Assembly (NCBI GenBank): GCA_951406725.2
Contig: OX597822.1
Span: 39,494,001 to 39,558,000 of the forward strand
DNA: 64,000 bases
Direction: 5' to 3'
DNA from: Octopus vulgaris
Lineage: Eukaryota
Part shown: positions 287 through 50,656 of the stretch, piece by piece
How the letters are laid out: the number at the start of each line of letters is the position of its first letter
Position numbering within the stretch: the first letter of the stretch is position 1
Notes under the pieces: model-generated
The model's input: only the letters and a program-made list of their open reading frames with translations
Database searches by the model: none
Told to the model about the DNA's origin: nothing
Made by a program: the position numbers and the translations under genes

Positions 287-507
287 TTTCGTTTTTGGAT
301 TTGGTTTGCAAGATTCTTTATATGAGTTCGTGTGTTGAAGCATATTCTGTTGTGTCTGGGGAGAGTCAAGACTATTGAAAAGGTTGCAAGACGCAACGAA
401 AATTTTAGGAAAATAAAAATAAGAAAAAAAGTGGAAATTTTACCGCTGAGTGTGTTAAATAATAAGGTACTAAAAGAGAATGACTCTCCCCAGATACAAC
501 AGTATAT
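287..507. mobile_element. Foldback non-autonomous PLE-type repeat between (TA)n runs
   Basis: 27-bp inverted repeat (342-368 vs 481-507), a ~55-bp extension on the left arm only, TA runs on both sides, and an internal HHR motif. Confidence 0.6.
372..408 (+). ncRNA. Minimal hammerhead ribozyme motif, U3-A8 core variant (stem I clipped)
   Basis: cta-TTGAAAA-G-gttgc-aagac-gcaac-GAAA-AT-TT-tag: perfect 5-bp stem II, AATT palindrome in place of helix III, 3-bp stem I cut by the inversion junction. Confidence 0.6.
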
Positions 508-717
508 ATATATATATATATATATATATATATATATATATATATATATATATATATATATATATATATATACATATATATATACATATATACATATATA
601 TATCTATCTATCTATCTATCTATCTATCTATCTATCTATCTATCTATCTATCTATCTATCTATCTATCTATCTATCTCCCTACATATCTATCCATATACA
701 TAAATACCTATGTATAT

Positions 718-1213
718 ATTCTTTTAATTGCTTCAGTCATTTGACTGCGGCCATGCTGGAGCACCGCCTTGAAGGGTTTTATTCGAACAATTCAAACCCT
801 GGACTTATTTTTTTTTAGTCTGGTACGTTTTCTATCGTTCGCTTTCGCCGAACCGCTACAGGGCGACAAACACACCAACACCAGTTGTCAAGTGGTGATC
901 CAGGGACAAAAACACAGACACAAAGACACACACATGGATACACATACGTACAAACACATACACACACACACACACACGCACACACACACACACATACACA
1001 CACATACGCACGCACGCCGCCACGCGCGAGCTCATACACACATACACACACATATATGACGGGCTTCATTCAGTTTCCGTCTACCAAATCCACTCACAAG
1101 ACTTTAGTCGTTTCTGGGGTAGAAGACACTTGCCCAAGGTGCCACGCAATGGGACTGAACCCAGAACCATGTGGTTGAGAAGCAGCTTCTTACCACACAG
1201 CGAAGCCTGCGCC
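718..1213 (-). mobile_element. tRNA-derived SINE, family B (CORE-like, with an internal TA/TG microsatellite)
   Basis: Reverse complement has a tRNA-like head (GTGTGGTAAG...GGTTCAGTCCC), then GGCACCTTGGGCAAGTG, an internal microsatellite, and a CAGTCAAATGACTG tail. Confidence 0.8.
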
Positions 1214-1409
1214 TGTGTATGTATGAATTTACCTTCCTACCTACCTACCTACCTACCTACCTACCAATCTATCTATCTATCTATCTATCCATCTATCTAT
1301 CTATCTATCTATCTATCTATCTATCTCTCTCTCTCTCTCTCTCTCTCTCTCTCTCTCTATATATATATATATATATATATATATATATATATATATATAT
1401 GTCTTTACA

Positions 1410-1790
1410 CTTTTACTGTCTTACTTGTTTCAGTCATTTGACTGTGGCCATACTGGAGCATCACCTTTATTCGAGAAAATCGACCCCAGGACTTATTCTT
1501 TGTAAGCCTAGTACTCATTCTATCGATCACTTTTGCCGAATCGCTAAGTTACGGGGACATAAACACAACAGCATCGGTTATCAATCGATGTTGGGGTGGA
1601 CAAACACAGACACACAAACATATACATATATATATACGACGGGCTTCTTTCAGTTTCCGTCTACCAAATCCACTCACAAGGCTTTGGTCGGCCCGAAGCT
1701 ATAGTAGAAAACACTTGCCCAAGGTGTCATGCAGTGGGACCGAACCGGAACCATGTGGTTGGGAAGCAAGCTACTTACCACACAGCCACT
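1410..1790 (-). mobile_element. SINE family B
   Basis: Homologous to 718-1213. Confidence 0.8.
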
Positions 1791-46898: not shown

Positions 46899-47814
46899 CA
46901 GGCGTACTGCAATTTAGGTCATTTTGAGTTACGTCTTTTTCGACATTAGGTTTTTTTTTTTTTTTAGAAATTAATGAGATTGCAAAAAAAAAAATTAAAC
47001 CCAAACTTCAGTCGATTTATCCGTCGCAAAAAACATATTTGAAAGAATAACAATTCTAAAAAATACACCTAAAAACCGATACTGAAGAGGAAAATCAAAT
47101 TTTATCAACCGTTATCTGTTTTGATAAATGGCTTAAACATATTTTTACATGTGAAAATATGTAAAAGCCATTTATTCTTTCCTACTCTAGGCTCAAGGGC
47201 CGAAATTTTGGGTCAGGGAGCCAGTCGATTGGATCGACCCCAGTACGCAACTGGTGCTTAATTTATCGGCCCCCGAAAATATGAAAAGAAAAGGCGACCT
47301 CGGCTGAATTTGAACTCAGAACGTAAAGTCAGGCGAAATACCTATTTCTTTACTACCCACAAGGGGTTAAACACAGAGCGGACAAACAAACGGATTAAGT
47401 CGATATTATCGACCCCAGTGCGTAACTGGTACTTATTTAATCGATCCTGAAAGGCTGAAAGGCAAAGTCGACCCCGGCGGAATTTGAACTCAGAACGTAA
47501 CGGCGGACGAAATACCGCTAAGCATTTTGTCAGGCGTGATAACGTTCCTTATTTCTTTATTGCCCACGTAACTGGTACTTAATTTATCGACCCCGAAAGG
47601 ATGAAAGGCAAAGTCGACCTCGGCGGAATTTGATCTCAGAACGTAAAGGCAGACGAAATACGGCTACCGTTTCTGCCAGCTCGACGCCTTAAGTAAAATC
47701 CGTTTACTAAAACAAATATAGGTTGAAAAAATTTTTGAAATATTTATTCGCTTTATGTTGTTTGTTGAGTTAAGTCGTATACCTTGGAAGCAATTCCCGA
47801 CGTAAGTACGCCTG
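46899..47814. mobile_element. Possible Tc1/mariner-type MITE containing a tandem family A SINE array (47172-47690, - strand)
   Basis: TA-CAGGCGTAC ... GTACGCCTG-TA termini. The inverted match is short. Confidence 0.4.
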
Positions 47815-48439
47815 TATTTTGTAATAGGATTCTATATAACTTCAACATAATTTTCATTACTATATGTAATGTAAAAATGATATATAATTTATTTAGTGTC
47901 CTTGACAGTAGCTTGTTACATACATTGAAGTTTTGTTATTTTTTCTTGATGGTTGATTGACAGAGGGTAAATAAAGAAAACGAACTTTTTGCTAATTAAT
48001 GTCAGAAGTGGAGCGACGGCAACCATGACATTTTCAGGTCATTACCAACCCCACATCAGACTGGCTGACATTGAAGTGATTACTGTTGATCTTGAACCTA
48101 TGTCGGTCAACGTTGGAAAAAAACTTTTGACAAGGAAAGTAAGTCGAGAGTGATATTTCTGTTTCCTGCAAGGAAATTCCGATACGCATTAGTCTGGTAA
48201 TAATCTCGAAAGGTTGAATTCTTGTATAATGAAGAACGCCTGTTTTTCCAGGGTCAATAGAATAATGTACCAGTAAAATGTTGAGGTCGATATAATCGGC
48301 TATTCTCCCCACCCCGCAAAATTTCAGGCCGTCTTAGTCGATGTTAGATTATTATTGCGTTTTCTTTCTTTCTCAGGCTGGTTCTTATAACTTGGTTACT
48401 TTTCTTCTCTAATAGCAGGCTACAAGCAGCAGCAGTGAT

Positions 48440-48935
48440 AGGCCTCAAACAACAGTTTCTTTGCCTTTTCTATTCATTTTACACAATCTGATCATCGAGT
48501 GACCTTCGTAATATTTTAGATGTTCTCAATAACCAAACTCTATGCAATAGCTCTTTCTCGCAATCTTTTCGACCTTCTGTACCCATTTTGCAGTGTTGCC
48601 CTCTCCTGTTCCTAATACTCCTACAACTACTGGTATGATAGTTGCCGTCGTTATTTTCCACGTTTTAATCACTTCACACTTAAACTTTTTTTTATAATTT
48701 GTCAACTTTTCTTCTTCTTTACGTTCTATTCATGTGTCGAATAGACATGATGGGCCAATAAGGAGACATATCTTGTGGATTTCCTCAACAACTATGATAT
48801 CAGGTGTGTTGTGCTCGAAGTGTTTTTCTGTTTGTATGGGTAAATCCCTAAAGAGTCGATAACTCACTGATTCAAATATTCTTTCAGGTTGGTGTTCATA
48901 TCACGTCTTTCCACACTCAAACCCCATTTCTGGTG
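48440..48935 (-). mobile_element. Decayed R4/Dong-like LINE fragment (restriction-like endonuclease region)
   Basis: The - strand reads LPIQTEKHFEHNTPDIIVVEE...ICLLI. Confidence 0.55.
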
Positions 48936-49919
48936 CTCTACAAAGGGTTTAAAATTTTGCACTGATACAAATTTACTCAGGACAAGAAGTAACCTGCTTC
49001 CGACTTTATTTTACTTGACAAACGGTATGAACATTTAGGAAAGATGGAGAAACAAATCAACAGATTACAACAGAGAAAAGTAACGCTCAGTTCATCGCAA
49101 CAACATTTAGGTAAAAAAAAGAAAGGAAAACAACTCTGTATAGTTACTTATTGACAAAAATATACAAATTAGAGCGTATACCTTCAGACCAAGCAGAATA
49201 GTTTTTAAATAACATTTGATCGGATGTTATTTTTTGTGAGACATGCCCATAAGTTCGGAAACAGCTGAGTTATTTTTCGCTCGGAAACAGTAATCCAGCA
49301 ACACTCCACCGGGTACAAATCTTGAATTTATTATAAGAATTGGACTTCTACTGGGTAGTGAAATATAATGGACTTGGAAACTCTAGCAAACTGCAAGAAA
49401 CAAAAAGAATCTGAACGGGAAATTGGGTTGACATGGGGTAGGAGATTCTGATACAGATGAAACCTGAAGCACTAGACGAAATTCCTCACCTAATAGAGTG
49501 ATCCCAGGACAACAGTTGCAGGTAGTAGTGAAGGGTGGGAAGCCTCGATGCAACAACTGGGGAAACATCTCAAGTCTTCCTCTTCCCAACAGTAACAGAA
49601 AATAGAAAAGAAAAATGTCTCTACTACAACTAATACTACGACATCAATACCAACAACAAAAGCAGCAACCACAGATAGCTACAGCAACTGCAAGAGTAGC
49701 ATATGCAATTTCAGCAACAATGATTGCAGCACCAGCGACAAGACAGGAAGCAGTACCTACAGAAACAACGCCAAAAGTAGAAGCAACAGCAACAAATACA
49801 ACAGAAGATTCACCGCTACCAAAGGCTACTAGACGGAATAAGAATATAAGGGAATTATTAACCTCTATTTCTGACTCCAAGAAACGAACATTGGAGTATC
49901 TGCACGCTGTACCTTAAAG

Positions 49920-50656
49920 AACAGCCGCAAGAGAGGTAAGCCATGTTCATTGTGCAACAACATGAGTGAAGTGAATTCTATCAGAAATCATAATAGAAAT
50001 GCTACCGTTTATACAGAAGGTGGAACATGTAAAGATTCCCATTTGGTGTACACTGCAGAATGCACGAAACACAACTTGATTTATGTTGGTTGTACAACAG
50101 AACAATTAAACAAAAGGTTTAATGGACACAGATTCGACGTTAGGCACAATAACAGTAGTTCGACAGAACTTGCTAAACATTTCGTTTCAAGCGGCTGCAA
50201 TTTTGAAGAAGACTTGAAAGTGCATATTCTCAGAATCTGCTCCACTTTCATTTCTCAGAATGTATGAGGAGAAATATGTTTGCGGGTTATTAACATCACG
50301 CCCTGGAGGAATGAATAAGATAACAGGAGAATATCATCAAATTTATACAAAACTGTTTGATTAAATATTCTTTCCACTTTTTTTTTCTTTTCTTTCTTCT
50401 GCCGTCTTCTTTTTTCCTGTTTTTTTTTTTCTGTCTTTTTCTTTTCGGCTGTTATGAAATTGTAACTTAAAAACTGATGATGTCATTCCATCAACGTGTG
50501 GACGATGGTTGCTCTCGTTCATATTTTACGTTTAAATTTTTGTAATTTTGAATTTTTATCACTTCTTATTTTGAACTTGATAAGACAGACTTACTGTTGA
50601 AATATCGTTCAACCAATAAAATATCTTACAATCGAATCGCGCTCTTCGTCTTGACT
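49920..50656 (+). mobile_element. Penelope-like element 3' part: GIY-YIG remnant plus pLTR, ending at (ATC)n
   Basis: PCSLC...GTCKDSHLVYTAECTKHNLIYVGCT...LNKRFNGHRFD...LAKHF, then after a frameshift EEKYVCGLLTSRPGGMN. Confidence 0.85.
50566..50619 (+). ncRNA. Minimal HHR motif, U3-A8 core variant
   Basis: ttatt-ttgaac-TTGATAA-gacag-actta-ctgtt-GAAA-TA-TC-gttcaa-cc-aataa: 6+5-bp stem I, 5-bp stem II, ATAT palindrome, AUC site, followed by AATAAA. Confidence 0.78.

Follow-up and report, generated by a model that had tools for sequence, protein, structure and literature searches.

Hammerhead motifs with C3-G8, U3-A8 and G3-C8 cores in Penelope-like elements and tandem retrozymes of Octopus vulgaris

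Penelope-like elements (PLEs) carry minimal hammerhead ribozymes with a small stem III in their pseudo-long terminal repeats (pseudo-LTRs), described in 2014 by Cervera and de la Pena (PMC4209133) as having an unpaired base before stem II, a palindromic stem III and many unrelated families per genome, with U3-A8 at the 3:8 pair in a variant that gave ~1,300 matches in Schistosoma; such minimal motifs cleave weakly as dimers. Natural covariation of positions 3 and 8 to U3-A8, as well as a U15.1-A16.1 variant, had been reported in 2011 by Perreault et al. (PMC3088659). In the green anole, the naturally C3-G8 hammerhead of PAc Poseidon lies in the pseudo-LTR near the start of the frame of an element with A/T-rich targets and two reverse-transcription start sites that give a tail; it is protein-assisted, partly rescued by an engineered C3G/G8C swap and killed by G3-G8 (PMC11167929). 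Non-LTR retrozymes form ~360-nt tandem units with a type I hammerhead (PMC7229834; bioRxiv 10.64898/2026.07.22.740005). Here we compare with these systems, drawing also on PMC6765202, PMC6155905, PMC10085705 and PMC2920678, the hammerhead motifs of a 64,000-nucleotide window of the Octopus vulgaris genome (contig OX597822.1, positions 39,494,001 to 39,558,000), in which three versions of the 3:8 pair occur and one, G3-C8, belongs to a PLE that has spread very recently, as judged from the likeness of its copies.

A scanner for the hammerhead layout that leaves positions 3 and 8 free gave, at strict settings (stem I of at least 4 and stem II of at least 4 Watson-Crick pairs), five matches in the window, compared with 0.025 on average over 40 dinucleotide shuffles: 20445- (G-C), 38823- and 39006+ (C-G), 45815- (C-G) and 50571+ (U-A). 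Looser settings raised the number to nine, adding 372+, 20518+, 45290+ and 29489-, while the motif at 37995 was missed by the scanner and was read directly; its family is intact elsewhere. The hammerheads and their associated features are as follows.

372..408, plus strand: U3-A8 hammerhead of family U2, with a 3-bp stem I
19697..20191, minus strand: G+C-rich GIY-YIG remnant belonging to another PLE and lying downstream of the G3-C8 motif
20305..20651, no strand assigned: two pseudo-LTR ends of the G3-C8 PLE family in inverted orientation, target (TA)n
20445..20495, minus strand: intact G3-C8 hammerhead with a 7-bp stem I, an unpaired G and a 5-bp stem II
20518..20568, plus strand: decayed second G3-C8 copy, with U4C and one wobble in stem I
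29489..29521, minus strand: decayed C3-G8 copy (U4C), like the 45291 family, absent from the initial annotation
37995..38040, plus strand: C3-G8 hammerhead of a family with 5,895 pattern matches, stem II mismatched in this copy
38823..38882, minus strand: C3-G8 hammerhead with a short hairpin stem III and an odd (interrupted) palindrome, on an arm of an inverted insertion
39006..39066, plus strand: C3-G8 copy, partner of 38823 in the inverted insertion
45290..45324, plus strand: minimal C3-G8 hammerhead from a family with dispersed copies
45815..45869, minus strand: C3-G8 hammerhead with an odd (interrupted) palindrome, present once in the 1.98 Mb examined
49825..50361, plus strand: C-terminal stretch of a broken, Neptune-like PLE frame with a CxxC linker and GIY-YIG; parent element of the 50571 hammerhead
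50571..50612, plus strand: U3-A8 hammerhead of family U1, ~310 nt after the GIY-YIG match

The initial annotation of this DNA had placed nine sites in at least seven sequence-unrelated families, and both the sites, with their layout and 3:8 pairs, and the families, as separate sequence clusters, are borne out by direct reading together with the scanner. Its description needs correction at 20518, which is not NUGANNA (U4C), at 372 (3-bp stem I), at 38823 and 45815 (odd palindromes) and at 50566/50571, which is one base shorter than its family; since several copies (20518, 50566 and, with its stem II mismatch, 37995) are decayed, we give the families more weight than single copies. With a three-way junction, a conserved core and a Watson-Crick 3:8 pair, the motifs have the type I hammerhead layout. 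The unpaired base between A9 and stem II and the palindromic 15.1-16.1 segment are present in the G3-C8 (hereafter G), U1, U2, 37995 and 45291 families, while the insert after A9 is absent in 38823 and 45815; the closing pair is G10.1-C11.1 in G, U2 and the retrozymes and a G.U wobble in U1. In the intact copy at 20445..20495 a 6-nt palindrome replaces stem III and the cut is predicted after U17. Within the inverted pair at 20305..20651 the minus copy has a long end and the plus copy a short end, and the insertion holding the 38823 and 39006 copies has arms at 38664-38813 and 39075-39224. No Rfam hammerhead was among the matches listed for the window (150 of 272), and three focused Rfam scans gave no hammerhead match for G3-C8, U3-A8 or a canonical C3-G8 control; as the control was missed too, the swap is not the cause of the miss.

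The assembly searched comprises 2.8 Gb in 227 contigs. A blind sample made up of the window and 120 other 10-kb stretches (1.264 Mb in all) gave 26 strict matches, compared with 0.4 in five shuffles: 19 C3-G8 (7 of them in one tandem array), 3 G3-C8, 1 U3-A8 and 3 non-complementary, two of which cluster with C3-G8 families and one of which lies in a decayed G-family end. In a larger own-genome set of 1.98 Mb, much of it picked by family and therefore not blind, 184 matches fell into 17 clusters (11 C-G, 4 U-A, 1 G-C and 1 weak U-U singleton), with no A3-U8 family among them. Of the five variant families, three had first been picked by the initial annotation and two, both U-A (L264, L207), turned up blind, as did two G-C copies (L111, L202).

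Genome-wide counts of 22-mers and patterns, with the split between pairs tallied by hand from the first 100 matches listed, show one prevailing pair in each family. The G family has 5,534 exact G3-C8 22-mers (backward control, 0). A further 166 matches have position 3 changed (63 A, 27 U and 10 C among the first 100 listed, with no C3-G8 sister and four A3-U8 copies that fit two independent transitions), and 324 keep G3 with position 8 changed (42 G, 41 U and 17 A among the first 100 listed), so that the family pair is lost in 490 of 6,024 pattern matches. Family U2 (2,060 matches) has 94 U3-A8 and 6 C3-A8 among its first 100 listed; the corresponding figures are 96 U3-A8 for family U1 (215 matches), 94 C3-G8 for the 37995 family (5,895 matches), and 88 U3-A8 and 12 C3-G8 for a retrozyme-type pattern (893 matches, spacing often 360-363 nt). 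By extrapolation from these first hundreds, U3-A8 totals ~2,900 in three families, one of them a tandem retrozyme. Single mutants make up 4-8% of copies across the families tallied. Covariation of positions 3 and 8 holds between families, while decay within a copy strikes one position and then the other; the proposal that the two positions always change together thus stands for family majorities and fails for individual copies, some of which depart from the pair. Every variant family tested genome-wide keeps one Watson-Crick pair, as predicted, and the warning that CUGANGA scans would miss many motifs holds, with ~8,400 variant-core pattern matches lying outside CUGANGA.

The G3-C8 motif belongs to an autonomous PLE. 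At L252 a 1,025-codon frame (L252:2471-5545, minus strand), the start of which may derive from an inversion junction, has PLE-type reverse transcriptase (RT) motifs and a C-terminal CxxC/GIY-YIG region in a comparison by eye; a Pfam search gave no match on the last 487 amino acids. The protein has 22 longer homologues, the best 48% identical and none with an informative name. By eye, the short CxxC linker before its GIY-YIG region resembles that of the Nematis clade among the Figure S2 rows of PMC8557442, and a long RT insertion between motifs 3 and 4 is missing from two nematode rows of Figure S1 of the same paper; the insertion is common to P0001, P0002 and P0004. From the best 150 scored of 8,411 candidates in a protein search we took the top 30 loci (27 insertions, three inverted pairs being counted twice), which as the best protein matches are the youngest copies. 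In 29 of these 30 protein-picked loci the G3-C8 motif follows the stop at a distance of 966-1,149 nt, and the 30 differ on average by 0.67 of 600 nt, from which likeness we date the spread as very recent. A partial tandem pseudo-LTR, an inverted truncated copy, a tail and a microsatellite target are all present in the family. At L255 the pseudo-LTR stands ahead of the frame in tandem order (3' untranslated region, UTR; hammerhead; tail; frame). The tail of this copy, which is broken by a stop and a frameshift, contains an in-frame ATG ~128 nt past the predicted cut. The 3' ends of copies cluster at ~+84-92 and +140-152 from the predicted cut, matching the two reverse-transcription starts of PAc Poseidon (PMC11167929). 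Microsatellite arrays also lie inside the 1-kb 3' UTR of the element (L225) and have spread with each insertion. The GIY-YIG remnant at 19697-20191 was considered as parent of the window's G3-C8 motif and rejected, being on the wrong side and ~30% identical to the G and U1 proteins.

Selection on the G3-C8 core was assessed by comparing one young copy, as reference, with seven older copies from 16 fetched at 76-90% protein identity; the nine others had no match to a 30-nt anchor and were dropped. The core had changed at 3 of 77 sites (3.9%) and the stems at 13 of 196, while third codon positions had changed at 362 of 1,394 (26%), first and second positions at ~9-10%, the early 3' UTR at 29% and loop II at 28 of 56. 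By this comparison of sequences, the core is under purifying selection in the master elements.

The swapped state is likely derived, since related elements in metagenome contigs carry C3-G8: among 17 of these the scanner matched one only, L305 (C3-G8), and C3-G8 cores were read by eye in L303 and L306 (plus three near-identical contigs). In contigs at least 82% alike from four public runs (four organism labels), no alternative letter reached at least 5% at position 3 or 8. By eye, L303 (~4960-5015) also shows a U15.1-A16.1 core variant, and L306 (~6200-6235) an apparent G12A that is found in L306-L308 and L310.

Among the U3-A8 carriers, family U1 lies ~300-370 nt behind a GIY-YIG match (Pfam PF01541) in its least rearranged copies, and by eye the long CxxC linker of its protein is like that in the Neptune rows of Figure S2 (PMC8557442). 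No RT/GIY-YIG frame was found among 30 U2 loci, the copies to which the search was limited; similarly, no linked frame lies beside the 37995, 38823, 45291 and 45815 sites in the window, longer copies being outside the search, and the 45815 hammerhead has no PLE protein remnant beside it. The proposed origin from PLE ends therefore has protein evidence for the G3-C8 and 50566 families, two of the seven in the window; in the remaining five the link is putative, suggested in some by layout (inverted pairs, microsatellite flanks). At L207:2786-3830 a U3-A8 hammerhead lies 875 nt behind a GIY-YIG remnant. Two ~360-nt tandem retrozyme families were also found, at L264:3640-3910 (U3-A8, the commoner) and L101:3050-4560 (C3-G8), the former with a unit spacing of 360-363 nt, within the 300-400 nt used as criterion; that the two are sisters is unsupported, as they share only 27 nt of ribozyme. 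L101 resembles the published non-LTR retrozymes, from which the octopus set differs in that its commoner family is U3-A8, a pair of which we found no mention in the main text of PMC7229834.

Two of the three pairs (C-G and U-A) and the PLE setting are thus already known, the U3-A8 core having been published for PLE hammerheads (PMC4209133). The descriptors of that study cover C3-G8 and U3-A8 only, and the rows of its Figure S3 that we examined contain no G3-C8 (C3-G8, two U3-A8 and one U3-G8). The examined portion of the Perreault et al. report likewise makes no mention of G3-C8, and its U3-A8 examples differ from the present case in not belonging to a high-copy active retroelement (PMC3088659). 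In PAc Poseidon C3G/G8C is an engineered mutant, whereas here G3-C8 is the wild type. The searchable literature, which leaves some key hammerhead surveys outside its coverage, holds G3-C8 only as this engineered form, and by title or abstract nothing on octopus hammerhead ribozymes. We provisionally regard the natural G3-C8 core as new; what these results likely add is a G3-C8 core that is natural and under selection, carried by an autonomous PLE that is very young and of high copy number, together with U3-A8 tandem retrozymes.

We consider it fairly probable that the motifs are type I hammerheads of PLE ends and tandem retrozymes, each family with one complementary 3:8 pair, and that young G3-C8 copies still self-cleave weakly. 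In the predicted fold of a G3-C8 copy stems I and II form. By analogy with published PLE hammerheads, that of the anole element among them, its cleavage would be weak and conditional. The G3-C8 pair would have replaced C3-G8 in a master lineage, through a swap in two steps. With no more than a weak palindrome for stem III, the monomer would be nearly silent and the 3' copy thereby protected, a silence that would be needed since both reverse-transcription starts lie beyond the cut, which would part them from the frame. Cleavage might then occur as a predicted dimer or with help of the element's protein, the useful cut being that of the upstream copy in a tandem, freeing an RNA that begins ~128 nt ahead of the likely start codon. 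Several observations weigh against this reading. The A/U-only palindrome has a duplex energy of -0.2 kcal/mol, and the co-fold of two G3-C8 copies did not adopt a dimeric hammerhead. Only five of 182 genomic fragments of the G family have a terminus 4 nt or less from the cut site, with no pile-up of insertion ends there (for U1 and U2 the same test was swamped by adjoining repeats), and the anole PLE shows no RNA-seq ends at its cut site and inserts in vitro without cleavage (PMC11167929). The claim that variant cores were selected is upheld as purifying selection on the G3-C8 core; given the genomic ends and the anole insertion result, the further claim that this was for cleavage is not shown. 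The comparison behind the purifying selection is itself tempered by the shared ancestry of the copies, by an anchor that favours conserved motifs, and by conservation of the tail (13.5% changed) and of the 60 nt upstream (11.5%). Finally, in the G family G3-G8 is about eight-fold commoner than its mirror change C3-C8 (42 of the first 100 listed of 324, versus 10 of the first 100 listed of 166). A single G3-G8 sublineage was rejected as its source, five inspected copies sitting on different loop backgrounds; examples on several subfamily backgrounds are L006, L029, L030 and L256.

The G3-G8 excess and the conserved flanks speak for an explanation that we hold rather unlikely, in which the G3-C8 fold serves a purpose other than cutting (protein binding, RNA packaging or positioning of reverse transcription) or persists as a deliberately attenuated ribozyme, the swap having been tolerated or favoured for lowering cleavage of the 3' copy. 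Every integrated long copy indeed holds an uncut 3' hammerhead, the two 3' ends fall beyond the cut site, and C3G/G8C gives only partial rescue in the anole PLE (PMC11167929). However, the active fold requires just what is kept here, a complementary 3:8 pair together with U4, G5, A6, A9, G12-A14, A15.1-U16.1 and a U17 that can be cleaved, and four further families keep U-A. It is improbable that the hammerhead is dispensable and that G3-C8 hitchhiked with a successful master element, its complementarity being leftover or luck: although one family accounts for all G3-C8 copies, and hence a single evolutionary event, single mutants reach the frequencies given above, and Naiad PLEs thrive without canonical hammerheads (PMC8557442), the core diverges by 3.9% compared with 26-29% at third codon positions and in the early 3' UTR, and five of six non-canonical clusters are Watson-Crick, two of them found blind. 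Chance matching in DNA rich in repeats has a negligible probability as the source of the motifs and is already refuted for multi-copy families by the strict-setting excess and the fixed position behind PLE frames, although loosest settings yield 9.6 shuffle matches per 1.264 Mb and single weak matches may be chance.

Elsewhere in the window, which is rich in microsatellites, a second hammerhead-like junction (stem, GAAA and closing stem, with a shortened core) lies at 37958-37994, just upstream of 37995; a junction of this type is also present in L212, and L012 has an intact C3-G8 hammerhead with an identical stem II. Long inverted repeats of 180-240 nt at 7276-7877, 25952-26504 and 60398-60980 are probably inverted insertions of short repeats. 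Frames at 9991-10404, 28083-28763 and 32150-34917 resemble what we take to be remnants of mariner-type transposase and long interspersed element (LINE) reverse transcriptase.

Although hammerheads are nearly universal in PLEs, their cleavage is poor and seems dispensable in vitro. An element that is young and intact, with the 3:8 pair swapped and every catalytic position kept, is a natural covariation test. Tentatively, a natural G3-C8 hammerhead, the rescue mutant of the biochemists as wild type in more than 5,500 copies, may run a spreading element, tuned down until the protein or a second copy licenses the cut, with families setting the strength of cleavage through the 3:8 pair and CUGANGA screens having passed such families by. 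If true, entire active families would have escaped those screens, some elements called hammerhead-less perhaps among them. The G element lends itself to a comparison of C-G, U-A and G-C cores within a single context, in the presence and absence of its protein, and screens for ribozymes and transposons should leave positions 3 and 8 free.

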